In this document: piece after piece, positions 7,927-53,624 of the stretch
Position numbering within the stretch: position 1 is the stretch's first letter
How the letters are laid out: each line of letters opens with the position of its first letter
NCBI RefSeq assembly: GCF_000497125.1
Contig: NC_090600.1
Coordinates: 1,385,197 to 1,449,196 of the forward strand
Direction of reading: 5' to 3'
Length of the DNA: 64,000 nt
Source of the DNA: Spironucleus salmonicida
Lineage: Eukaryota
Made by a program: the position numbers and the translations under genes
The notes under the pieces: model-generated
The model's input: the letters and a program-made list of their open reading frames with translations, nothing else
Databases searched by the model: none
What the model was told of the DNA's origin: nothing

Positions 7927-9141
7927 ATGTCATCTTAGTTTTAAACCCTTCGTGATCTTGAATCTAAGCTCTAGTTTTTGGATTCACAGATATCTTTCTT
8001 ATAATAAGATTATTAGCATTTAAGAACCTCTCACTCCTAGCTTTTGACATAATACTCTTAGTTACATTAAACACCACTTCTAATTGGTTCTGTAGTAGAA
8101 CCAGTAGATGCATAAAGATGTATAGTTTAGCCTTCAAATTTATAGTCAAATGTTTTAGTTCGTGTTTCATCCCACGTTAATCCTGCTCATATCAAGCCTA
8201 TGGCAAATGTTGCACTTAACAGAACGTCTTATGCTGTTCATAAAGTACTACCAGTATAAAATGAGTAAAATTAAAATTTGGTTAACGTAGAAGAACGCCC
8301 TAATATTACATTCGCCGATATCGGTGGATATGATTCTGCGAAATAAGATCTTAGAGAAGCAGTAGAAATGCCTATTAAGTAACCTCATATTTTTAAACAA
8401 CTAAATATAGTGCCACCTAATGCGGTGCTTCTCTTTGGGCCACCTGGTAATGGTAAATCATTATTAGTTAAAGCCATTGCAAATGCTTGTGACTGTACAT
8501 TTATTAACATTTCATCTTCATAATGTGTTCAAAAATATTTGGGCGAAGGTGCTCGAATGATTCGTGATATCTTCAAATTGGCTAGAGATATGGCCCCATC
8601 TGTTGTCTTCTTTGATGAAGTAGATGCAATAGCGACAAAAAGATACGATAACGCTACTGACGGAGATAAAGAAGTTTAGCGCATTTTACTTGAGCTTTTA
8701 ACCTAATTAGATGGTTTTAATAACCCTGAACACTTTAAATAAGAGTAAGTCAATGAATATGATGATTAAGAGACTATTGCAAGAAAACTCAATAGAGGTG
8801 TTGTTAAAGTAATTTTTGCAACTAATAAACCTGATACGTTAGATCCTGCTTTATTAAGAACAGGTAGATGTGACCGGAAAGTCGAAATTACATTCCCAAA
8901 TAAGAGAGAAAAAAGATTAATTTTCTAAGTCTGCAGTAAGAAGATGAACTTAGAGAAAGACGTAGATTTTGAAGTATTTGTCTCAAAAAATGCTAAAATA
9001 TCAGGAGCTGATATAGCCCATGTTTGCAGAGAAGCGGGTATGCAAGCTGTAAGAAATAATAGATTCATTGTTAGTCATGATGATTTTGAAAAAGCTTGGG
9101 ATGTAACTATCGCAAAAAGAAAAAATGACATTGATGAGTGA
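7927..9141 (+). CDS. RPT3: 26S proteasome AAA-ATPase subunit Rpt3 (PSMC4), 404 aa
   Basis: [80 protein letters not shown]. Confidence 0.93.
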
Positions 9142-9190
9142 AAAACCATATTTTTAATTATATAAGAATTAATATAAAAAATTTATAAAA

Positions 9191-11962
9191 ATGAATTTGG
9201 AATTAACGCTATAATTTCCATCTCAGTTCACCTCAAATTTTGTATAAGTTTGTCTGGATAACGACGATATTGAGTATAGAGGCCCAATGTAATAATACAA
9301 AGATAATATGGTGTTTAAGTTTCAATATGTGGACGAGCCAACACGCATAGTTCTCAAGTTGGATGAAAAATTTATTATTTCAGATTTTAACATCCATATT
9401 CCATTTTTTAATATCTCTGTACCCGAACTTGTTAAGTTTTCACTATCAGTTAGTATAGTAAAGCAAGTTGTAACATTTAATATTTTAAATATCACAACCA
9501 ATATATTCTTGCCAAGGTCACAGGTGAATTTAAAGAATCTACTCTAAGTTGAAATAATATCAGATGAATTTTATTGTGTTGTCAAAAGGTAGACATAAAT
9601 TAGGCTCCCATTCGCCTAATTTCGCTTTAATCTGCTTATTTCAGCTTTAATTCTATAAATTCCTACTGAATTCGTTCTATGTGGTGCTAGTGTATCTAAT
9701 TGGGGACTAGCATAAAGTTTTTTCTCATATGAGGTCAATAAATATTATATTTGCCTTCTAGACTGTCTTTTATTAGCATCTAGTGAAAATACAGTAATAG
9801 AGCCAGTGTTTAGTTAAATTGTACGTTTGGGGCTTTTGAATTTCGTTTTTGGTGGTAAGACAACAGGAGAACTCGATGATATAGCTTTATAATTATATCA
9901 GATGTTTGGTGAAGAAATTAAGAATTTATCAATAACTCTTAATTTTGGTGTAAGTAAGTAGGTATCAATTGAATATTTTTTATAAAAACATACTAATTTC
10001 TTAGCTATTTAGTGTATTGGCTACAATATCTAGAATAATGTAAAGTGTATCAAGTAACACGATTTGGAGCTCGGAGGAAACGACATTAATTTTGAAGGAA
10101 ATGAATCTCTTTTAGGTTGTTATAATTAAGATAATTGGTTATTTATTCATAAAGATTAAACTAGCTCTATCGCTGGCAAAATATAGACCCGGTAACTAGA
10201 AGTTTGTGTTTAAAATTGTTTAACATTAGAAGATTAGATTTTTTATATTGATCTAGTACCAATATTAAAAAATTATATTAATAACAAATAATCAAAAACC
10301 ATCCTTCAAATTGAAGGCTTAGAATTTGTGATTTAATTTTAAAATAATGACATTTAAGCAACATAACAAGTGTTATAAAGAATATAACAAGAGATAATAA
10401 TTCCTCGTGCTACTCCTCGAAAGGTTAGTATTATTCGAGAAAAGGATACTGAAAGTTACAAAACTACAGGAAATTAAAGTGGGGCAAATAATATTCTATT
10501 AAAAAACATTGATGTTGGTTAAATTTAACGTGTTAATTCACCAAATATGTCATTTCCTAATTCAGTCTAGTTGAAACCACCAGTTACGACAAGAGGAAAA
10601 TAACATCCAAAAACTGTTTTGAAAAAGAAAGTCATTACTAAAAAATAGAGCGATAGCAAGGAGGTACAAGATTTTGTTGTAAGTGAGTCATCATAGAAGA
10701 CTGATGACTAGAAAATAATATAAAGTTTAGAAGCTAAGACTATTGATTAAATTTAAGGGTAAAAATTAGATTAACATCGTAAAAAAATTGTTGAAAGTCA
10801 AGAATTACTTAAATAAGCTCAATCCAATGGTAATTATTTATAGTAAGGTAATGATCTAGAGAATGTTAATTTGAATACAAAAGATATCCAAAAGCAAGTT
10901 ACTACATAAAAAAAATGCATAGCAAGCTAGATAGAGGTGCTGTAAGTAAAATTGAAAAACTAATCTGATCCTAAATATAATAACACAGAATCGGATATCC
11001 TACAAACTACTAAATGTACTCCTGTAAATCATTACCAACAATAGGATAAAGTTTAGCTAACATCTAAGGAAAAACTGAAAGATAATCGGTAATTAAAAGC
11101 AGCAGAAAGTAATAATCCATAAGCCTCACAAAAATAATAACCGTAATTTAAATCCTTAAAAGTATAAGAAAGTTCCAATACATAATCAAATCCTAAAACG
11201 AATATAAACCCAAGTGTCATAAACAGCGTCAAACCTGTTGATATCACCAATTGTTTACCAGTTTAAGAAAGTGTACCTTCTGTATCTACTACAATTATAA
11301 CCTCTATAAAACCAACCGTCCCTCTAATTTCTTTATAGTAGTAATAGTCTCAAATTCCAAATAGTGATACATTTCATATTCAACTTCCGTCAAGTAGAGC
11401 TACGGTTCAGCCTACTGGAGCTACCAAAACGCCACACCCATAAGATTCCAGTCCAGGTAATACTTTTGATATAGCTCCTAAACTAGCATTTGATAAGCTG
11501 TCAATTACAGCTTTTGATGCATCTTTAGCGACAGTCAGATTAACTCCTTACCGGGAAGGTGTCACTACCTAATAATAGCCTATCTTAGGAGTTCCAGTGA
11601 TTCACCCGCAGAAAATTAACCAGCGGAGCAATATTAATCACCATGAATAATTAGAGCGGGAACTTAGGAAATAGGAGCGAATCAGTTAAAGCGGATATGG
11701 TCATGCCAGTTCAATTGTTGTTAAGAAAGTTGACCCATCTGATGCGAAATAGTACTCAATAGGCCAAAAAAAATATACTGGTGGTAATAGAGCAACTGTA
11801 AGCGTAAGTTTGCCACTTAGATCACTTAATCCCGTTTTGAAATGTTAACTTAAAGATTCGAACTATTATTCAGAGCTAGCAAAGCCGAAATAAGTTTAGA
11901 TCATTGAAAAGTATGAGCAAAAAATGATGCAATAATACTTAGATAAATTTGGTAATATATGA
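9191..11962 (+). CDS. Hypothetical protein, 923 aa (folded N-half, Q/S/T/P-rich disordered C-half)
   Basis: Long code-6 ORF from ATG 9191 containing track ORF 9308-9547, in-frame TGA at 11960-11962. Confidence 0.75.
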
Positions 11963-12000
11963 GTAGTTATTATAATATTATATTCAATATGTATTTGAAA

Positions 12001-13242
12001 ATGAAAAATCTTCGCAGCAACTATTTAAACAATAAATTTTTGTTAGACTGTATTATTGGATCGGGAGCTATGGGGATTGTTGGGTTATTTACTAATACTA
12101 TAACCAGGTAAAAAGTTGCAATTAAATAGCTTCCCGCATTCGAAGTAGAAGAGATTTATCTATAGGAGGCATTGAAAGAAGCAAATGTACATAGTTAATT
12201 GAGACATCCAAATATAGTATAGATATATGAATATTTTAAAATAGACTAATATTTCTATATAGTAATGGAATATTGTAATGCAGGTAATTTGGTTACTGAA
12301 AATACAAGATAGAGATTTAAAGAAATGTACAGATACAAGGAAATTTAATTCAAATTTGTTGATGAGTTAGTCTATTAAATAGTAAAGGCTGTTTATTATT
12401 TGCACTATTAACATTTTTTACATAGAGACATTAAACCATAAAATATCTTATTGCATGTTTAAAATGGACATTTATCTGTTAAATTAGCTGATTTTGGATG
12501 TAGTAAGAAACAAAAGTAAGAATATCAAAATACTATGGTAGGAACACCAGAATTTCAATCACCTGAATAGATTTTGGGTCAAAAATATACCAATAAAATA
12601 GATATTTGGGGATTAGGGTGTGTTATTTATTATCTTTTAGAGGGTGATGCTCCATTTATGAATAAAATTCATTCTTTATAAGTTCATTTTAACAGTAGTA
12701 AATCATGTGAATTACCAAAAAGTATTTAGGGAAAATTTCGAACACTTCTCAATAATACACTAATTAAGGACTAGAATTAACGTTTAACTGCTCTTGAAAT
12801 CTTACAAATATATTATGATAAACGGCTGGAACTTCATCAGCGACCATTGTTTCAAAAAAAAATAAAAATTGGAATTTTAGGTTAAAATTTTATCAATAGT
12901 TCGTATTCTTCTAATAATTTCTGTATTGAATTTGTGACAGTAACTCGTACACTAAAAGATGTCCCTCTGTACCTCATATGTGTTGATGACCTGATGCTTG
13001 GAAGCTTTTAAGCAGACTATATAAGCTAAACTGGGGGTAATGTATTTTGCCTTTTAGACTCTGCATAAAATTATGACAAATCTTAGTTAACTGAATTTAT
13101 GTCAAGAAATGATACCTTCATTACAAGTGTTTATCAAAATTTCACAGAACACTTGATTTGCAGACTTATAAATACATCTATTAGATTTAGTAAATTAAGT
13201 AAAAGCAAGGTTAAGAGCACGGTGGAATGTTTTGTTGATTGA
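12001..13242 (+). CDS. Ser/Thr protein kinase with C-terminal small-GTPase-like extension, 413 aa
   Basis: GSGAMG, VAIK, HPNIV, HRDIKPQNIL, LADFG, GTPEFQSPE, DIWGLG; all catalytic motifs intact. Confidence 0.92.
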
Positions 13243-13323
13243 CTTAGATTATGTAATGTAACAGTTAGATTTTAAAATTAGTATTAAAAGTTATTATTAT
13301 ATTATACTAAATCGAAATTTTAA

Positions 13324-13830
13324 ATGGATCCATTTATGTAAATTATTTAAGATCTAAATAACTGCATAGAATCTATTGACTATTCAGTGGCTAGACACGA
13401 ATCAAAATCTGTATATAATAGGTTATCTGAATCAAAATTTTATACAGGAAGTTAGCGAGAAATTTTTAAAAATAAATAGTTAATAGTTTAAAATAACAAT
13501 AATTATAGATAAAAATAAAAATTAAATAGGTTTACTCCATTAAGTACATTTTTAAGGACAAATATTTAGAGTAAATAACTGCCTTCTGAAAATGCACCAG
13601 ACGTATATTCTCGGCTAACAGATATTAAAAAATATACAGGAAGATAAAAGTTTACACATTAATAAGAATAAATCAAAGGAATGGTTATAAATTAATGTTA
13701 AAAATCATTATAAGATACGTCGTTATCTTCTTAAAAATATGGTAATGTATATTCTGCTAAATTTTATGAAAGTAACAGCTCTTTTGCTAAATTTAATAAA
13801 TAATTTTTAGATAACATTGAATCATAGTGA
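13324..13830 (+). CDS. Protein with two partial p25alpha (TPPP-type) motifs, 168 aa
   Basis: SVYNRLSESKFYTGSQREIF and DVYSRLTDIKKYTGRQKF match the RLTDxxKYTG core. Confidence 0.75.
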
Positions 13831-14757
13831 TGTTTATTGTATATTAGTTAATTTTTATTATATATATTCAGTTGTTTAACAAGAGTTTATAACTGATAGT
13901 TTTTTGAGTAGAATATTCAACTAATGCATATATTTTAATAGAATAATATCTTCAGATTCAAGTAATTAATTAATTATATTTTATTATAAAGTATCGTTTG
14001 ACATATTATTTAACATTTTTTCCAATCCATTTTTTTAATCTAAAATAATAAATATTGCATCATAAAAATACTCAAAAAAATAATTTAAATACTTATAGCG
14101 GACTTTACGATCGAAAAGTTCTATTTTAGATAAAAAAATATCCAGAAAAGCCTGGTGGTAAATAGTTGAGAATGCAAAAATCGCAATATGGCAAAAATAG
14201 AATGAACTCGGTTTTGAAAGTATGGAATCCGTTCCCGTTGGCATGAAAAAATCTTAATATAATGTTAAACTTGTTAATGTAAGCACGTTATTAAATAATT
14301 GTTGATTATTAAGTATTAAAACGTAATATCCCCAAAAACAATAAGTGACAGTAACTTTATGCTAAATGTTGATTTCAGCCAGTAAATCCAATATATCATA
14401 TCTTTCTGCCTATACTACATATTATATAACTGACTATGCATATAAAGGATGTTTAATAAATTTTTAACAGTAATAAGAAAGATCTATATTAACCAGATGT
14501 TAATAAACAGCTATTCTACCGAAAGCCTAAAGTATAATATTTTAATATTATGGCTCTAAATTTGGCTAGTTAATGTAATTCTGCAGTTGTTGCTAAAAGC
14601 AAGTTGAGTCATATCCTTTTTCTAGCAGCTTTAGTTGATTTTATATAAATGGTATAAGTTTTTCCTTTTAAGGTAGGTCTGATGATAACTGGTTCCGTTC
14701 TTTAAAGATATGATTAAAATTTTGAAACCTTAAATGGATAATCGAGAAATTATTCAT
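13822..14757 (-). CDS. Hypothetical helical protein, 311 aa
   Basis: MNNFSIIHLRFQNFNHIFKERNQ...; open in code 6, includes track ORF 14035-14244; stop overlaps the neighbouring gene by 9 bp. Confidence 0.65.
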
Positions 14758-20345: not shown

Positions 20346-21476
20346 ATGCTGCCCACGGCACCGACGCTAACTGATGAAATACTAGCAAAGCCTCTTACAC
20401 TTGCATCTATAGATTATCTACTGAAGCGCAAAAACCAACAGTTTGAAGATGCAATTTTGTACGACAAATCTGAGCAGATTACGCTTCAAACAGTAGGCCG
20501 AAACGTTAATTTGCGCGCAATCATCGAGTTCTCAAATGCATGTGCTCTTGACTGTGACTATTGCGGTATTCGTAAATCATCCGACGTTGAGCGATTTCTA
20601 CTGGATCGGGAAACTATCCTTGGCCTGGCCTAGAAGGCGATAGATATGGGATATCCAGGGTTGTTACTATAAGCTGGGGAGATAGTCACGTAAGGAAGAG
20701 TAGATTTTGTGGCTGATCTCGCCCGCGAAATCAAGAAAATGGCTACCAAGCAGTACAGTAAGGAACAGGGATTCCGGATTATCGGATCTATTGGTGAATT
20801 ATCGTTCGGACAATATAAATAGTTGAAGGATGCAGGAATTGATCGATACCTTCTTAGGATTGAATCGAGCAATCCAGAACTTTATGCGAAAATACACCCA
20901 AAAGAGTAGCGTTTTTACGCCCGGGATGCATGTTTAGACAAGCTTAAAGCACTTGATTTTATGGTTGGAACTGGAGTTCTCATTGGGCTCCCAGAGCAGA
21001 CGACATATGACTTAGCTCGGGATATAATGTATTTTAAGCGGAAGGGGGCAGATATGATTGGTATGGGGCCTTATTTGCCTGCAAAAGGCACACCCTTGGC
21101 CGAAAAATATGACAGAAAACAAATTGAAACTAACTTACATACCGAAAACCTATTTGATACTATTAAGAGGATGATAGCAGTAAATAGGATTTACAATCCC
21201 AAGGCTAATATATCCGCTACAACTGCGATGGAAACTATTTAGGCTAACGGAAGAGTTGAGGCAATCAAAGCTGGTGCAAATGTGGTGATGCCAGTTCTTA
21301 CACCTTAAGAAAATAAGGTGAAATACTCACTTTACGAAGGTAAAAATGATGTTAAAAGCTCGCTAGATATCTTAAAGAATTAGATTGAGTCTGCTGGAAG
21401 AACAATGGACCTTACGATTGCAGGGGACCCATTAAGCTGGGTGGAACACTTAAATGCTAAACATAGGTCTAAATGA
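20346..21476 (+). CDS. hydE: [FeFe]-hydrogenase H-cluster maturase HydE (radical SAM), 376 aa
   Basis: LRAIIEFSNACALDCDYCGIR (CX3CX2C), RYLLRIESSN, VGTGVLIGLPEQT, DMIGMGPYLP..GTPL, ATTAMET, AGANVVMPVLTP, YSLYEGK. Confidence 0.92.
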
Positions 21477-25710: not shown

Positions 25711-28700
25711 TCATTCTAAAGGTGCCCAAGGAGGAAACATTTGTCCTAATCGTATCTCATCGATACTTCTGTTTATTGATACCCAATATTATTCTTCGAT
25801 ATTGCTACAAATATTTTCAAATATTTTCATAACTATATCAGTTTTATTTTTAGAAAGCATGGTTGAAACTGCAGTAAAACTGGTTAAAAACATATGTGAA
25901 TTTTATTAAATAATTCTCAGCAAATTTTAAGAAGTTTATTTAAATCTAGATTCAAATCTTGCAGGTCCTAATAAATGTATAATGAATGGAGTTAATCGTA
26001 TGTCGCATGCGTCAGGAATTGGCAAATCTTTTGCATGATAAAAAATAGCTTCAAAATCTATATTATGAATAGTTTAAGTTACTGGGTCGAACAAAATATT
26101 ATTATTATGTCTATCACCAATTCCTAAAAGAAAACAAATAACACTCCAACATGCGATTGAATCTATAGTTTTGTAATTGTTATCTTATTACTAACCAACA
26201 CTGCCAGAATCAAATAATGAAAATCTAATTTGTGATAATGTTAGTTATTTTTACATTTATTCTTTTAAATATACTTCACTGTGCTATGGAAAAGGCTAAC
26301 GATATTAAATTTTTGGATAAGTATTAATAAGTGATTATATAGATTATAGTTTTTATAAAACTTCGACTAAGGAAAATTTATTATTTCCAGCACAATAAAC
26401 TTATCCTACGTAATATATTTTAAATCTAAAGCTTGAAAAACTCATAAACTAGTTTAAATTATCTAAGTATTCCATAAGACAATTATCTGTTCCGGTAAAA
26501 TCATCTGGTTTTAATATCAATTATTCCTCAGTAAAATTTAGTTACACATTAAATAGTACTGGTTTTGCTTTAGAATTATAGGTTTTTTAGTATTAAAATG
26601 ATTTGATATAAAATTGTTCTAATAATATTTCATAGTCATCTATATTTGTATTATTTTAACTAACTATAATTTATTTAGAACAGTTTAAGAATTTAAATGA
26701 ACTAAAGCATATCTTTTTGTGTAATAAATGTTTTCTTTGTTCCATTTTATCGCGTATTTAAATTAGTTCTTCGATAAATGAACTATAATTTACCGAATAC
26801 TAAATATATTTGCTTACAATATCCGTGTACCCTTTACTTTACTGAAAAGATTTAAGAATTTTGAATATTACTTGCGCTACCAAATCATTAGTGGTAAACT
26901 TTTTCTAAGTTTTGCTTACAAAATAAATCCCTACTTATCTTAAAAATAAGTCAAAATGTGCATAGTGCCATATTGAATTTTTAATTATAACTTCTAATAA
27001 ACCCTCACAATTAGTTAAGGCTTTAGATGTGAGCTGTTAATAGCCATTAAAAATATACACAAATTATTCTAAAATTTAATATGGAGATAATTAGTTAATA
27101 AAATCTATTATTAAAGTTTGGTTAGCTAAATATTAGCTTAAAAACGTCGTCTATGTACCTTATTCTTATAATGTTAAGTAATCTCTTATTGATTATTATA
27201 GCTCTTATTATTAATTATTTTGTTATGTAAAAGATTATTATAATTAACATCCTTCGATCCATATTATAAAAAATATTTTATAATATTATGTTATTAACGA
27301 ATTTTTCTCATTAAATATTTATAATATTATATGATGAGTTCTTAATATAATTTCTAACTACAAAAGTTTGCTATTTTCTTATTTTTATGCCTGTGTTTTT
27401 AATTTAATGTAGATAGGTATTATTTTGTTTAGTAAAAATATTTACGACTAGTTATCTTAAATAAGATCGTATAAATTGTTAAATATAGTTTACAATGATT
27501 CATCGTTTAAAATTGAAAATTCAGATGAATCATCTAAATTTTATAAAAAGATTGATTAAATACCTTATTATTTTAAAATTCCTTAACTTTACTGTGGCTA
27601 TGACATAAGTATTCTGTTTAAATTCAGTTAGGATTGAAAATGTTAATTTTGCAACTTACTTAATGAAATTTTATTCGTATAATAAACTTTCAATAAATGG
27701 GCATATTCTTTTTTACCTAAATTTTTTGATTGAGTTTCTTCTTGAAATCCATATATAACATTTATTCTTTCAAGTTATTTTTCTAAATTAATAGATAATT
27801 ATTATTTATATGGGTAATATGCTACTAATTATTGTTCCACAAGTACAACTTAAGTATTTCTTTACAATAATTTTATTAGCAAAGATTTAAATCGCTAATC
27901 AATAGATAATATGCAGTTGTGTATATGGTTATGATGTAGAATAAAAATAAATTATTCGTAAGCTAATTCATATTATTATCCAAATAAATAAAAATCGATT
28001 AAATTAATATAAGATTAATAATTTGCCTAACTATAAGATTATAAATCTTAGTTTATAATAATTCTATCCTCATTACTTACAAAAAGATATTTAATATTTA
28101 TATTAGCCTACAAAAGAATATTGATATAATATTCAGCATATTCAGAAGTTATAACTGAGCTTTGAATGAACATGTTCTAATTAGACTATCCTCTTAAGTA
28201 ATATAAAATTTATAAAGAAATTTATGATAATATCTCTGAAAATAAATATTTTTCTCCTTAATCTAAGAATATTTTTTGTAAAGTAAAAACAAGCATTGAA
28301 ATTGTTAATTATAAATCAACTAAAAAATGAGGTTAGATAAGATCAAAAATAGATGAATATATTTGTCCTTATGTTTTTTATTGTTATGAGGTGATTATCT
28401 TTTCTAAGATCAAATAAAAATATTCGGATATATTTTAAGCGTCTATCTTTGTTTTAACCTTTTACATATGATTAGTTTAATAAGTAATTTTTAATCTATG
28501 AAATCTTTATAATTAATTAAACAATTCCCCATTAATGATTCTTGTTCTATCGATAATTTATAAATTATTTAAATACTTGCTAATAGTAGACAGACTGACT
28601 AAGTTATGGGTTGGAAATTAAATATTTTTCAATAAATACTCTGTAAGAAATGAGAAATATTCTTTGTATGCAACAGTTTTTTATAGCTAAACTTTTTAAT

Positions 28701-31005
28701 TTTAATAAAAATTTAATTGTAGAACATAGTTTCTTTTTGTAGATGCTTCAAATATTATATGATATAAATCATTGACCAATTAGCTTAATTAATTTATATG
28801 CTAGAAATTTTATTTTACATCTAATATAATTGATAAAATTTTTAACAAATACTATACACTTACTATTTTATCAACATAAAAATTTTAGGATTAAAATAAT
28901 ATTTACTATAACTAAAACTGATTAAACTTTTAATAGTGGATAAGTTTTAACACTATAAATTATTTGAGTCTCATATCGCTTTAATTCATAGTCAATATAA
29001 TATTTTGAATATATTATAAATCTATTTCATTGTAAAACTAGGTATCTTTAAAACTTTAATAGATATCTTATTGTTCCAATGATAGATACGGAAAAATTTA
29101 TTCTTTAAGTATGATTGAAGAAATTAACATAGCTGAATTATCATTTTTATCGTTTTTATTAAGGTATAGTATATGTTGTAAATCATTAGAATAATAAGCA
29201 TAAATTAATGCCTGTTAAAATAATTAATCAAAATATCTAGAAATTATTGTATTATCTAAATTTTCTAGAAATAGATAATAAAATAATGCTTATTTTAACA
29301 CTGCTTAAAATACAGGCAAAATTACACATTTTTTCTTGCTATCAATAATCGAATCTTTTAATTAAAACGAAAATATACAAAATTATTAAATTTATTCCTA
29401 ATCTCCTTATATTAAAATATTCATTAATGTGTTTAACTATAGAATTAGTGAAGTAAGTGTGTTTTCTAATTCTGAGCAAATATAAATATTTTATGGAGTG
29501 AATATAAATCCTAAGCTAAAAGGCTATATGTTGTTATAATCTTCAATTACTAAAGAAATTACTTAAATAGCATCTAATATATATAATTATGACAATGATA
29601 TATCAAATACGTCGAAGTTATAATTATTGGTAAAATAACTCTCATATAATATTAGTGTTTATTAAGATGTTGTTCTTTAAAATCCTACTAAAGATTACTA
29701 ATAATCTTTATCTTTAATGGAAATAATTAATTATAAAATTTTAAAGGAAATTTGTGGGAATTTTATAATAGGACCGTCAGAAGATTAGATTAGTTTTAGG
29801 CAATCTAGAATATAGCTATCAATATAAAAATGAGAAATAGATGAATTTATATTATGTAATAATGATAATCTATCTATAAGTTTTATAGACTTTTATCTTA
29901 CCCAGATAACTTATTAAATAATACTATTCATATTTACTTTATTCTTATAAATTTTAAAATTAATATTATCTACATTCATAGAATCCTGTACACATTTTAG
30001 CTAAAGCAATAACTAATAAATCTAATCATTAACACACACCATATTCTCTAAATTAAGAATATTTAAATTTTAGTAAAGGAAAAGTTCTAGTGTAGTATAA
30101 TGCTTAGCGCTAAATGTATCTACTCTTTTTAAAAAATTCAAAATAAATTCATACAACAAGTCCTTGTCACAATTAAACCCTGGATGTGATGAAACGAATT
30201 TCCACATATATTTGTAGTACTTCGTATTCATTCCAAGTAGATTTTTGAATAGTAAAACGTAAAAACTACCTAGCAAAATCTCTTAGTTAATTTTTACAAA
30301 ACCTAAAATTTATGTAAAACTAATTTTTCGAAGTTCAAGGTGTTCAATAGAATTTTCTATTTAATTTAATAATTTACCATCTAAAAATTATATCGTATTA
30401 CTTATACAGAATTCTAAAATATCCTGATGTTATTGTTAAAAATTATTATATGTTTATAAAATTGAAAGAATTTCTAGTGAATTTGATGATTACATCTCAA
30501 AGTGTTTAATAAAATTTCTAAATATATCAACAGTCAAAAATTAATAATTTTTGTTTTTGATAATATCATAAACAATATTTTCAGTATCCAATAAAAGGTA
30601 ATGACAACATTATTTGCCAAAGCCAACTTCAGCTAATGTTGTTAGTATACTAAATAACTCCAAACCTTTGAAATTTAAAATAAATCGATCTAAAAATTAT
30701 ATAATCTAAGCAATAATTTATTATACCGAAAGTTCGTGTGTCACGAAACGAATTAATTATTTAGAACTAATAAGATCCAACTAAAGACAGCAGAGAAAAG
30801 CGATGACTCCTAGGGATGATATTTGATGATTTTGAAGAATTACTAGTTTTCTAAAATTATTTTCATTTTAAATAGAAATTAGAATTGATGATGGTGAAAA
30901 TAGTAAGTGCACATCAGTCATAGCAATAGTCGTTAAATTATTAGGGATTGTAGTAAAGTTTAATTATGACTGAGGAGATGACAAAAAAGTGAGAAGATCC
31001 GTCAT
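25711..31005 (-). CDS. PI3K-related protein kinase (PIKK), ATR/Mec1-like, 1764 aa
   Basis: LILKPDDFTGTDNCLMEY, SIACWSVICFLLGIGDRHNNNILFD, HNIDF, LPIPD..IRLT, FATC-like RLGQMFPPWAPLE; long helical N-terminus. Confidence 0.85.
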
Positions 31006-31057
31006 TTTACTAATGTTAATATATTATAGTCTATATAAATTAAACATTTACATCATT

Positions 31058-33544: not shown

Positions 33545-34471
33545 TCAAACAGATTACTATTATTTAAAATCAGCTTCTAAATCAGATTTCAATTAGAAAC
33601 CTTTCCTAATAGATATTTGATATTCATTGAATTCATATTAAATAAACTTATCTAATTTTCTATCTTTTGATGTAATTGCTTACTTTGGACAGTTTTGTAC
33701 ACAATTAAAACAACAAATGCAGTTATTTATATACTTTTCATCATTAAATAGTTTATCTTCGTAGCTGAAAGAAACTTTCCCATCAGTAGTCTTAATTATC
33801 TACTGTGGGCATATATCGACACAAATGTTACATGATACACATTTATCTTAATTCACTACTAGTGGAGATCTGATCATAGCCAGTTATCTAAATTTTGGTC
33901 TCAAATTCAAAATTGCTCTAACTGATTTTAATTTAGCCTTCTAACTCAATGATAAGCCACTAATAGGTGATTTCATGTTAATTTATTTATGAACTTACTA
34001 CAAAAATAAAGACAGTATTGACTCGTAATTAGGGTTTATGGTTTCGACTTCTTCTTTAGTTTTAGGGTAAGTAAGTTTATAATAATTATTTACATATTTT
34101 TAGCTTAAATTTCCATAATATAATGTACTAGATAATCTATCTTAAAAATCTAAAGCTGTAACTCCTGGATCACCGCCATTTGAATTAAGAGTGAATGTGG
34201 GTTTCCCTTTAAGAAAATTATCCGGAATATTATTAATAAACTTTTAAACTTATGGTGGAAGTTAATAGCAATCTGTATAAGAAGAAAATACCAGCCCATC
34301 ACAAGGAGCTAATTACAATTTTTAGTTTTCTTCTAGTTGATTAAGTAGTAAATTTATATCAAATACTTCAAAACTATATGACATATCTAACTATTTAAAT
34401 TATTAGATCATTTTCTTTACATAATGTTAATTATTACCAGTGCAAGAGCAGCAATATACATTAAATTTCAT
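33545..34471 (-). CDS. Flavodoxin-like plus 2x[4Fe-4S] ferredoxin fusion (EFR1-type), 308 aa
   Basis: N-terminal YCCSCTGNN (SxTGN loop), flavodoxin-like core, CVSCNICVDICP and CICCFNCVQNCP. Confidence 0.85.
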
Positions 34472-35208
34472 TTGAGGTATACGATCATATATTTATTAAT
34501 ATATATTATTATTAATATTTTTATAATTCTAGCGTATAAGTAGTTATATTTTCTCCTGATATATTTTAGAGCATTATATTGTTGTTTAATAATTCATTAA
34601 ATGCATAATAATTCAGATAAATGAGAAATAAAATATATAATTTAATGTTTGACTTCTTAAACTAGGATTAAACTGGCAAAGATATATATTATATATTTAG
34701 TTAATAAAGTGATTAAATAATATTTGGGATAGGCATACTGTAGTTAGTGGTCATTCAGTATTAAATAATATATCCATTAGCTCTATGGATTAATTGGCTT
34801 AATTATTTCGTATTGAAATTAAGAACACAGTATTTATTGTTAAACTAAATCTTGGTCAAAACAAATGAAAATACTAAATTTATCAAAAATCTAAAGTCTT
34901 CTATGATTAATAATTATTTTAATATAAAAATTTATAATGCGAACTAAACTTTTGAGAAATTTAAAATATATAGTAACAATTACTGTGGTAGATTGTTCGA
35001 AATCTATTTTAATTTTAGTACTCGGTTGATATAAAATATACGCTTAATTTTCTTGCAAATATAATTATAAATACTTTTATATATAAATTAAAAATAAAAT
35101 ATACTATTAAATAGAAAAGAATATATATATATAATAATAATATATATTTTTAGACATTTCAAATTATATTTATATAAATAAACTAATATGTATATTTGTT
35201 GAAATATA

Positions 35209-50257: not shown

Positions 50258-51463
50258 TCACTGTGGAATATCAATAGTAGGATTAGAACTTCGAAGTAAC
50301 TCTGATTCAAGTTATCTTAGATTATCAATTTACTTTTTTAGTTCCTCCGTAGACATTATATTAGTTTCAGGTTGATTTGGTAGCTGTAAATTTGGTTAAT
50401 TTATACTTAATATAGCTTATGTAGGTAATCGCAGATTTAGTAGTTAGTCTTCTTTATCATCCATAAGTGAATCATCAAAATTATATCTTGGAATACAAAT
50501 TTTTGGTTTAAAATTAGCAGTATTCTTTATAATTGGCTCTATTTCTTCATCATCAACTAATAACATTCTAGGTATTGGTATAGCTTAACTAGGTCCAGGG
50601 ATACTTTCTCCTTCTTAAAATAATATACGATTATGTTAAGGAGAACCAATAAACTATGTATTTTAATTTACTTTAATCTGTTAACTTTGATTTTATTGGA
50701 TTGCGGGTGAAATAGCTGTATGTTCAAATTATTTAGTAAATTATGGACTCTCAGCTTCCACACAAATGCTATCACCTGTATGTAACGTAACAGTTTTTTA
50801 CATTATCCCAGATGATTTTTACGATTTATCGGACTTTAGCTGTTTCTTATTTCCCTTTGGACTTTTCACTCTATTATTTATATTTTTAACGCCTAAGACA
50901 GTCTCTATGTCTCCGCCTACATCTAATCCACTAAACCGGCGAGCAACACTACAAATCACATCATTTAGGTTAATTTCATTTGCAGATTAATTCACAATTC
51001 CTGAGTATCCTAACACTTTACTACATAACTTCGCACTACCTACAGCAAAATTAATCGCAAAATCTTTAGCTGCACGTGCTCTTTCACATTCAAATGCTGC
51101 ACAACCCTTAATAAATTCTATATTTGAGTCTTATGATTGTTTTGTTGCTTTAACTGCCTTTAATAGAACATTTATTGACTTAAATTCAGGACCAACGTCA
51201 AAGTTTTGTGCTGCCTAGCCAAAGTTATCTGTTGCTAAATTAATAGCTTATTAATAATAATTTGTAAGATTCTTGAGTGATTGAAATGGCTGTTTTAATG
51301 CTGTTGGACAGGCGTACTATTAAGAAAAAATTTCAAACTAGAGCTCTAATTATTATAAAGAATTTTATGCATTAATAAGATGTTTAGTAAATTATAAAAA
51401 GTGTTTGTTTGCATTTTAGTAGAATTTTTGTTGCTCTTTTAAAGTCTAATCATAAGATTCCAT
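50258..51463 (-). CDS. BAR/FAM92(CIBAR)-like N-terminal domain plus disordered tail, 401 aa
   Basis: MESYDQTLKEQQKFY...AFECERARAAKDFAINFAVG...RRFSGLDVG; paralog of the next gene. Confidence 0.7.
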
Positions 51464-51516: not shown

Positions 51517-53382
51517 TCAGAAAAATGCATCTAGGTTGACCTTTTTATTCACATTTGAGGCCTAACTCTCTAGCTCGGGGATATCTATATCAATATTTGG
51601 TAATATTGATTTTTTAATTGGATTTTTTGTTTTTTTGTTGTCTTCTATTTCGTCATCTCCATACAAATCAAATTTTTTAGTTTCTTTCTTAGTCTCAGAT
51701 TATTTAAAAAATCCCTTCTTAGAATTTGAGGAATTCGATGTTTTAGAAGGCTCTGTATCAGATCTTTCTGATACGGGTCTTTAAATTTATTCGGGTTCCG
51801 GTTGTGTAACGAGCTATTCTTTGATAGAATTATTTTTTAATATAGATGACGACTAAGAATTATCTAAACAAATCGGTTAGACGATAGAAATCTACTATTA
51901 AATAGGAGATTTCGCTTACTGATTAATTTATGTCTATAACTCAGTAAGTTACTTCATTAGTTGTTCTTAGCTAGGATTTTACTACTATGGTTATTAAGTA
52001 TTTTATAACTGACTAGGATCATTTAAACTTTAAATACTCGGAATTGTATTAATCTATTATTAGATCGCCGAAAGTTACTATTAATAAAACATTGGGTCTG
52101 GGGCAGATACTGATAAACCTTAATGATCTTGTGTGAAAGAAGATTACTAGTTTGTTAAAGCCTATTTCTATAAATGATATGTTCCTTAAACATGTTAGGA
52201 TAACTATTAATGTGTACTAATAGATTGGTTTGCTAATAAATATTTTTCTAATACTGATAAGGCATCTAATTAGCGTTGTATGTCCTCTGGTGTTTTCAAT
52301 TTTCCTGGGGAAGGAACATCTAAAAGAATCAAATTATCTTAATATACTTCAGCTCTAATTTCATCTTCAATAGTTGACTCTTCAAATTTATAATTACAAC
52401 TTCTAGGTTATTTTTTCTTATAAACAGCATTTTATGGGCTATATTATACAGTACTTTATATTTATTGTTTAGTTTAGACTTACTCTTATACCTAATCCTA
52501 CTCCTGACTGTTTACTTATCCTCCAACCTAAACATACTACTATTACTAAAGATAACTAGTCTACTATTAAGCAGACTATGACATTGGAATTATTTATATA
52601 AAATCATCTTACTTAACCTATTTTTAACTCCCTATCTATCCACTTGTTTAACTTGGGCTAGTTGCTACAGTTCCTCCATATACCTAAATTGGAGACTTAT
52701 TTCTTTTTTGAGTAGATAATTACTTTTTCTTTCCAGAGGTCTAACCCTTAGAAATATCCTTTGATTAGAATCGCTGAGTCCCCGTTCCATATTAACGTCC
52801 TCTAACACCTAAAATATCTACAGTTTCCTTTCCGCAATCAAACCCTTAAAATCTTTAACTGATGCCCAAAATACCATCGATTTCATCAATTTCATCAGAA
52901 ATCTAACTTATTCCACTACTCTTTTCTAAAATTGGAGCTGAAAATTTAAGAATTCCAATTCCAAAATTTTTGACAATAATTTTTGAATTTTTATATCTTT
53001 TTCGTTCAAAATCACCAGCAGCAATTAAAAAATCAGTATTTGCTTACTATATGAAAGGTATTTTTGCCATTTTTGATGCTTTAAGTGCATTTTATATCAT
53101 TTTTATATCATCGAGCAAGTTTGATGCAGATAATACTGGTTATAAACTAGCGACTAGATTTAATGTACCATTTGAAAAAGTTTAAATAAGTTATTAAAGA
53201 CTTTATAGATGTGACTTCAAGTTTAAAGCTGAGTTGCTGGAAGTAAAAATTCCAATTTATTCAGCTAGTGAGGTAAGCGCTTGTAGTGATTATTGTTATG
53301 ATTTAATAAATTATAAGGTAAATTTATTGAAATTTTAGTAGAATTTCGATATGTCTTTGAGATGAATTTCGAATGATTCCAT
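51517..53382 (-). CDS. BAR/FAM92(CIBAR)-like N-terminal domain plus long Q/P-rich tail, 621 aa
   Basis: MESFEIHLKDISKFY...DFERKRYKNSKIIVKNFGIG...QRFQGFDCG; paralog of the previous gene. Confidence 0.7.
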
Positions 53383-53624
53383 TTTAATTTTTAGGAAATA
53401 TACTAATAATATTATAATATATAAAAACTATTGCATGAAACTCTGATATTACTGATAAAATTAGCAAGACTTTATGTACAAAGTAATTTATACTAATTTG
53501 TTATAACTCAGTACCTTAAAAGAGTAATGTAAACCTGAAAATATATGTTATTTTAAAATTATTATTTTCTAACTTAATTAATATAAATATCATAAATCTA
53601 ATAATTTATATTGTTTAAATTAAA

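Follow-up and report, generated by a model that had tools for sequence, protein, structure and literature searches.

Proteins that combine a protein kinase with a Ras-like domain in one polypeptide are known from the Roco family, which includes LRRK2, DAPK1, and the Dictyostelium Rocos. These have a recognizable ROC GTPase followed by COR, usually ahead of the kinase. The G domain fold is a six-stranded mixed sheet with five helices in approximately 160–180 amino acids, and its motifs follow the patterns GxxxxGK[ST] (G1), DxxG (G3), [NT]KxD (G4), and S[AC][KL] (G5). Class-I pseudo-GTPase domains, such as pG1 and pG2 of p190RhoGAP and the N-terminal domain of AAGAB, are described as G-like folds without nucleotide-binding motifs that mediate protein interactions and are difficult to recognize from sequence (PMC5593906, PMC12490416). 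The kinase LKB1 (STK11) is reported to be farnesylated at a C-terminal CAAX and to bind membrane lipids through a polybasic motif (PMC3898322, PMC5490199, PMC10979486). The LKB family is reported to have been lost in Giardia, and the words “Roco”, “prenyl”, and “farnesyl” have 0 occurrences in the text of the Giardia kinome paper (PMC3218828). Among the titles and abstract openings listed on pseudoGTPase kinases and diplomonad kinomes, none mentions a kinase/pseudo-GTPase fusion in diplomonads.

Here, we analyzed a kinase gene in a 64,000-nucleotide stretch of the Spironucleus salmonicida genome (NC_090600.1, positions 1,385,197–1,449,196), which we call the window and from which all coordinates are counted. 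The original prediction for this gene was an intact protein kinase fused to a Ras/Rab-like pseudo-GTPase, with a polybasic, CaaX-like end. By analogy, LKB1 appears to be the closest working precedent. Both proteins are Ser/Thr kinases of the CAMK-like group, similar in size, with a non-catalytic C-terminal region of about 120–140 residues that ends in a polybasic motif and a CAAX-type Cys; in LKB1 this Cys is reported to be farnesylated and to direct the protein to membranes. Unlike the present tail, which is hydrophobic, the C-terminal region of LKB1 is described as disordered, and the present box ends in D. The likeness drawn here is one of architecture. In contrast to Roco proteins, the protein described here has no Roc or COR match in Pfam and no G motif, and its additional module comes after the kinase. 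The class-I pseudo-GTPase domains are full-size folds that have been established structurally and are conserved across species, whereas the present tail is about one-third shorter and has neither relatives nor a confident model.

Our best explanation of the locus, to which we assign a probability of approximately 0.6 as a whole, is that this is a real and uninterrupted gene of a code 6 protist. It would encode a CAMK-like Ser/Thr kinase with a lineage-restricted tail of about 140 residues, in which an orphan, probably globular core is followed by a Lys-rich stretch and CFVD.

Reading frame and genetic code

Translation with table 11 yielded two ORFs of at least 60 amino acids overlapping positions 11000–14500, with sizes of 65 and 69 amino acids, and no gene is readable in this region with standard or bacterial stops. 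By contrast, table 6, where TAA and TAG encode Q and TGA is the sole stop, gave a single frame of 427 codons on the forward strand (Table 1). This frame contains 23 in-frame TAA or TAG codons. Because 18 of these fall inside a Pfam protein-kinase match that runs from end to end, and one of the 23 encodes Q161 in the catalytic loop HRDIKPQN, the assignment of code 6 is sound. The whole 64-kb window reads in code 6. It is AT-rich, with a GC content of about 20–35% per 2 kb, and long ORFs without interruptions, the largest of 1781 codons, lie close together along it. Such a window would suit a protist with few introns, for example a hexamitid diplomonad, better than a typical ciliate.

An entry in a public protein collection is 100% identical to this protein, has 413 amino acids, and starts at Met15 (window position 12001). 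The C-terminal end of the protein in this frame is ...KLSKSKVKSTVECFVD, followed by the stop. All of the strings quoted in the original prediction were found in the code 6 frame, with KIKIGILG beginning at residue 301 (window position 12859). We also compared the tail region with contigs from four public runs, which come from one study that is perhaps the source of the assembly itself and none of which is recorded as RNA. There were 0 differences from the window in these contigs, and a frameshift error is unlikely because all four are identical over the tail.

Table 1. Features of the kinase gene, in window coordinates. Residue numbers refer to the 427-codon frame.
Feature	Coordinates	Strand	Basis or remark
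Whole ORF, code 6	11959..13242	+	427 codons, then TGA
Ser/Thr protein kinase domain, residues 32–284	12052..12810	+	Pfam Pkinase, motifs, AlphaFold2
Linker, residues 285–299	12811..12855	+	Last kinase helix ends here in the model; low confidence beyond it
Tail hydrophobic core (putative G-like module), residues 300–410, ~110 aa	12856..13188	+	Orphan; weakly predicted alpha/beta
Lys-rich stretch, residues 411–423	13189..13227	+	5 K+R in residues –20 to –5
CFVD, CaaX-like box, Cys424 at –4	13228..13239	+	TGA directly after
TGA stop	13240..13242	+	Only stop codon used

Genes around the kinase and elsewhere in the window

The ORF upstream of the kinase (8990–11962) has 990 codons and no Pfam family, and its TGA shares bases with the kinase frame's first ATG in the sequence ATGA (11959–11962). 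The next plausible gene starts 82 nt downstream of the kinase stop, a spacing that is consistent with the tight packing of genes in the window. The small ORF at this place (13324–13830, forward strand) has a weak p25-alpha (TPPP-like) match of 22 bits, where the cut-off is 22.6. It is overlapped by a 227-codon ORF on the reverse strand (13134–13817) with a similar codon score (0.111 versus 0.091 for the small ORF), and either of the two may be the real gene.

Elsewhere in the window, a radical-SAM protein (20346–21476, forward strand) matched the model of the [FeFe]-hydrogenase maturase HydE with 246 bits, just below the cut-off of 254.6; this near-cut-off match points to an anaerobic organism in which hydrogenases are matured. 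A ferredoxin-like protein of the EFR1 family, which carries a 4Fe-4S dicluster domain (33545–34606, reverse strand), scored 71.2 bits, below the cut-off of 75. Two adjacent reverse-strand ORFs without a Pfam family (50258–51463 and 51517–53436) share N-terminal and mid-region strings and look by eye like tandem paralogues. The 1781-codon ORF (25711–31056, reverse strand) has as its sole match a C-terminal PI3/PI4-kinase domain (E 9.8e-18) and is probably a PIKK-type giant kinase.

The kinase domain

The kinase domain is intact, as originally predicted. Its match to Pkinase (PF00069) has an E-value of 1e-61 and 209.1 bits, with residues 32–284 covering positions 6–260 of the 263 in the profile, and all of the catalytic motifs are present: GSGAMG at residue 34, VAIK at 53, HRD at 155, DFG at 178, and SPE at 201. 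In an alignment of 77 sequences, the protein retained every invariant column (K42, E60, H141, R142, D143, K145, N148, and D164 in the numbering of the 413-amino-acid form). From these residues the kinase is apparently active, that is, catalytically competent. AlphaFold2 run with the 77-sequence kinase alignment modelled residues 1–280 mostly with a pLDDT above 90.

All five Pfam families matched by the full protein are of the kinase type (Pkinase, PK_Tyr_Ser-Thr, Kinase-like, Pkinase_fungal, and Kdo). Its best solved relatives were SIK3 (1.1e-33), CDPKs, MARK1–4, Aurora, PAK, MST, and PLK4, and LKB1 was not among the best 60 of 2700 solved relatives. By sequence, the kinase is a generic CAMK-like or “other” kinase without a clear family. 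When the whole protein was compared with 5.8 billion sequences, the closest relatives were 31–35% identical with approximately 50–69% query coverage, which corresponds to the kinase domain alone; the best match other than the protein itself had 31% identity and 60% coverage. One listed relative had 85% coverage. Over the tail it was aligned merely by drift of the gapped alignment, and it was rejected as a relative of this region.

Searches with the tail

The tail, defined here as the 143 residues from 285 to 427, gave very few matches in any of the searches. In Pfam at E ≤ 10 there was nothing but DUF6636 at 0.11, NCBIfam at E ≤ 1 gave 0 families, and 0 PDB chains matched at E ≤ 10. A word-seeded search returned the protein itself and nothing else among 58 candidates. 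With HMMER (phmmer) against 1.84 billion cluster representatives, four proteins passed at E ≤ 0.001, one being the query protein and the other three repeat proteins. Because the set includes the protein from this genome, the search also speaks against a detectable paralogue of the tail in it. Likewise, a six-frame code 6 translation of the window contained no paralogue of the tail, the only match being the tail itself. Metagenome contigs were scanned with the tail and, separately, with the full protein, giving 240 and 103 pattern stretches, respectively, of which tblastn confirmed 0. By these searches, in which orthologues from unannotated relatives could escape because standard-code predictions end at TAA or TAG, the tail is an orphan, lineage-restricted extension.

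Coding status of the tail

Codon use was compared in all six frames over the tail. The frame of the kinase had a codon log-ratio of 0.046, which was the best of the six. For comparison, in-frame windows had a log-ratio of 0.092 ± 0.093 and off-frame windows –0.116 ± 0.127, the kinase domain scored 0.136, and the second half of the tail had a weak score of 0.018. Over the tail, forward frames 0, 1, and 2 contain one, three, and seven TGA codons, respectively, and the one in frame 0 is the stop itself. The GC content was 29% in the tail versus 15% over the 81 nt past the stop. Mean hydropathy was 0.485 for the tail, 0.506 for its core, and 0.468 for the kinase domain, and the net charge of the tail is low; with this high hydropathy and low net charge the tail resembles a folded segment. 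As judged from codon use and composition, the tail is very likely to be coding and is probably globular.

A different explanation is that the tail is a young and possibly functionless extension, formed when an old stop was lost and translation continued to the next TGA, in which case the CaaX-like end would be accidental. Such a read-through extension has to be considered because approximately 8% of random 143-codon stretches are expected to be free of TGA, an estimate made from the AT-rich base composition, and random ORFs are described as frequent where a genome uses a single stop codon (PMC3916229). The failure of any search to find a homologue of the tail would fit this explanation, as would the AlphaFold2 pLDDT of about 31 across residues 282–358 and a codon score in the tail that is below that of the kinase domain. 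Against this, the GC content of the tail is like that of coding sequence and unlike that past the stop, its frame is the top-scoring one while the other two forward frames are interrupted by TGA, and its hydropathy and low net charge resemble those of a folded domain. In addition, if the kinase stopped at residue 284, a non-coding gap of about 430 nt would follow, although genes elsewhere in the window stand close together. We consider it unlikely that the tail is such an extension.

Comparison of the tail core with G domains

The tail had been read as following the strand order of a small GTPase while having lost GxxxxGKS, DxxG, and NKxD. The loss of these motifs was confirmed, with 0 matches to the G1, G3, G4, and G5 patterns in residues 285–427. 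By contrast, the resemblance in strand order was not above chance in tests against Pfam, NCBIfam, PDB chains, and 1.84 billion proteins, or with hhalign. Ras, Roc, Arf, MMR_HSR1, and other G families were all missing from the Pfam matches at E ≤ 10 and from NCBIfam at E ≤ 1, PDB chains gave 0 matches at E ≤ 10, and there was no GTPase among the four matches in the 1.84 billion proteins. In the hhalign comparison, where an Era profile stood in for Ras/Rab, the tail aligned to 20 Era sequences, collected with E. coli Era as the starting point, with a probability of 0.12%, a figure that applies to a shallow alignment with 76–96% identity.

Structure prediction with AlphaFold2 gave a fold for the kinase and no usable fold for the tail. 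When the tail was modelled alone, the pLDDT was 32.9, and strands were placed at four hydrophobic stretches that coincide with the proposed beta1–beta4. In the full-length model, residues 282–358 were coil and residues 360–412 formed helices with a pLDDT of 52–63; the two runs disagree over the last 50 residues of the tail. Foldseek was used to compare the low-confidence tail model with the PDB. The best match had an E-value of 0.22, TM did not exceed 0.31, and no G domain was among the matches listed, which extended to rank 50; with so poor a model, this outcome carries no meaning for or against a G domain. The proposed check by AlphaFold and Foldseek thus gave a kinase that folds and a tail that stayed at a pLDDT of about 31–33. 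As for the two findings that would speak against a G domain, no Ras-superfamily profile matched the tail, while its predicted fold was left without a confident topology.

A model of the whole protein from the ESM Atlas has a pTM of 0.60 and a mean pLDDT of 0.65. If, as we presume, the kinase domain has a normal share of this value, the confidence of the tail within it would be low. In this model the tail is a three-layer alpha/beta sandwich. Among the structural neighbours listed for residues 271–413, 8 of 10 belong to GTPase families with TM (by query) of 0.54–0.63, including one Ras/Roc cluster at 0.57, and the others include a response regulator (0.57) and a nucleoside deoxyribosyltransferase (0.46). 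With residues 285–400, FeoB_N, YihA, Era, and MnmE made up 6 of the 10 neighbours listed at 0.62–0.72, and the others were CheY receivers (0.70 and 0.68), a KaiC-type ATPase (0.67), and an unnamed cluster (0.68). When TM was normalized by the length of the GTPase, values were 0.20–0.53, and thus the tail spans only part of a G domain. A feature search of the Atlas returned two unnamed clusters at 0.77 and 0.76, which is under the chance level of the tool. The Atlas fold would best be described as a generic alpha/beta sandwich, in which a G domain, a receiver, and a RecA-like core are not discriminated and Ras/Rab is not singled out.

The likeness to receivers is about as close as that to G domains. 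CheY-like receivers and flavodoxin-like domains have approximately 110–120 amino acids, and their Atlas TM of 0.68–0.70 is level with that of G domains. On the other hand, no Response_reg profile matched the tail, and the short turns among the first three hydrophobic stretches would leave no room for the receiver helices. Turns that are too short for helices may favor an antiparallel hairpin as in TRAFAC GTPases over a receiver fold. The size of the core fits less well with a G domain. It has about 110 amino acids in comparison with about 165 or more, making it about one-third shorter, and a mapping onto the G domain would need one deletion that removes the P-loop with helix 1 and another that removes the beta5/helix-4 region.

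These results bear on the possibility that the core is a class-I pseudo-GTPase that lost its P-loop and helix 1 together with all nucleotide motifs, fused after the kinase and followed by a prenylated polybasic anchor. The majority of G domains among the Atlas neighbours would favor this, as would the strands that AlphaFold2 weakly placed at beta1–beta4 and the short turn linking the second stretch to the third, which suits a TRAFAC-like hairpin. The pseudo-GTPase domains of p190RhoGAP are reported to have been first recognized through a crystal structure (PMC5593906). However, the missing G motifs, the failure of every G-family profile and of the Era comparison, and the two large deletions that a core of this size needs all argue against it. 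The Atlas model on which it largely draws fits receivers and a KaiC-type ATPase equally well, is estimated to be low in confidence over the tail, and stays below the chance level in the feature search, and AlphaFold2 yields no tail fold. The Ras/Rab-like module of the original prediction was not upheld, and we regard a class-I pseudo-GTPase as quite unlikely. The fuller version, a miniaturized, nucleotide-free remnant of a G domain placed after an active kinase, with a polybasic/farnesyl membrane anchor, distinct from Roco proteins and confined to one diplomonad lineage, is in our estimation very unlikely. That the core descends from a small GTPase is a conjecture. Even so, because most Atlas neighbours are G domains (8 of 10 and 6 of 10), the label “unknown fold” may undersell a G-like origin.

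It is extremely improbable that the tail is instead a degenerate helical repeat of the 42-residue TPR type (TPR_10/TPR_12, as in kinesin light chains), because although phmmer against the 1.84 billion proteins returned two bacterial TPR_12/TPR_10-CHAT proteins at E 6e-9, with 34% identity by BLASTP over tail residues 5–94 (two 42-residue periods) and 52 bits for the real tail against a peak of 4.5 in 300 composition-preserving shuffles, those 52 bits are a sum over four to five repeat copies of the target in which the best single stretch has 18.7 or 15.6 bits, 18.7 bits is unremarkable for a library of 2.4e11 residues, just two such proteins pass even though TPR_12 proteins are very common, the Pfam models TPR_12, TPR_10, and other TPR models miss the tail at E ≤ 10 while matching the two TPR-CHAT proteins at 1e-116 to 1e-164, and residues 300–360 are helical in no prediction, and the Atlas neighbours of the tail are alpha/beta. 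We rejected TPR homology of the tail as an artefact of summing over repeats. The whole-sequence E-value of 6e-9 was built up by phmmer from four to five weak matches, each of at most 18.7 bits, to near-identical repeats.

The C-terminus

The classical CaaX box does not usually end in D, and the present one is atypical at position X. The predicted lysine patch and Cys at –4 were nevertheless found at the true C-terminus, where CFVD adjoins the TGA and has a Lys-rich stretch upstream of it. The basic residues between –20 and –5 are four Lys and one Arg. We compared this with the 42 long code 6 ORFs in the window. A Cys at –4 occurs in 1 of the 42, which is the kinase frame, with a Cys frequency of 1.6%, and at least five K+R between –20 and –5 occur in 3 of the 42, the kinase frame included. 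Chance alone would be expected to bring a Cys at –4 and such a basic patch together in about one of every thousand proteins.

In a screen with yeast FTase, the restrictive residues are reported to be D, E, K, and R at a2 and K, P, and R at X; I, L, M, and V at a2 are favorable, and D at X is absent from the restrictive set (10.1101/2023.02.06.527295). By these rules, which were derived from prenylation-only substrates of the yeast enzyme and not from that of the Spironucleus lineage, CFVD has a favorable V at a2 and a non-restrictive D at X. Isoprenylation of proteins is reported for Giardia (PMC13673894, citing Lujan 1995). The arrangement is also like that of the K-Ras4B anchor, where a Lys-rich stretch lies just upstream of a Cys at –4 and both a1 and a2 are hydrophobic. 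It differs from K-Ras4B in having Asp at X and just four Lys and one Arg, and its modification is putative. We consider actual prenylation of Cys424 possible, though somewhat doubtful.

Discussion

The results place this protein in a known kind: it is a eukaryotic protein kinase whose tail is specific to the species and may carry a prenyl/polybasic anchor. We propose that the tail acts as a species-specific regulatory or targeting module for the kinase. In this working model, its hydrophobic core of about 110 residues would probably be globular, with no relatives on which a fold prediction could draw. The Lys patch together with a lipidated Cys at –4 would form an electrostatic and lipid anchor on an acidic membrane, in the way that LKB1 or K-Ras4B is anchored.

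The alternatives considered here also have some general implications. If the pseudo-GTPase reading were true, the protein would be a new kinase/G-like fusion and an example of extreme reduction of a G domain; that idea depends on a single fold predicted by a language model. Likeness of motifs seen by eye, or a phmmer E-value inflated by repeats, can look convincing without substance, and targets made of repeats can lend apparent significance to chance matches of an orphan query. In genomes with one stop codon, orphan C-terminal extensions are common.

For the kinase with a lineage-restricted tail that we favor, the consequences depend on the C-terminus. Should the CaaX-like end be in use, the protein would be a kinase directed to membranes, in an anaerobic protist that has received little study. 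A CaaX-anchored kinase of this sort would introduce no new principle and would be useful for annotation and for localization studies.
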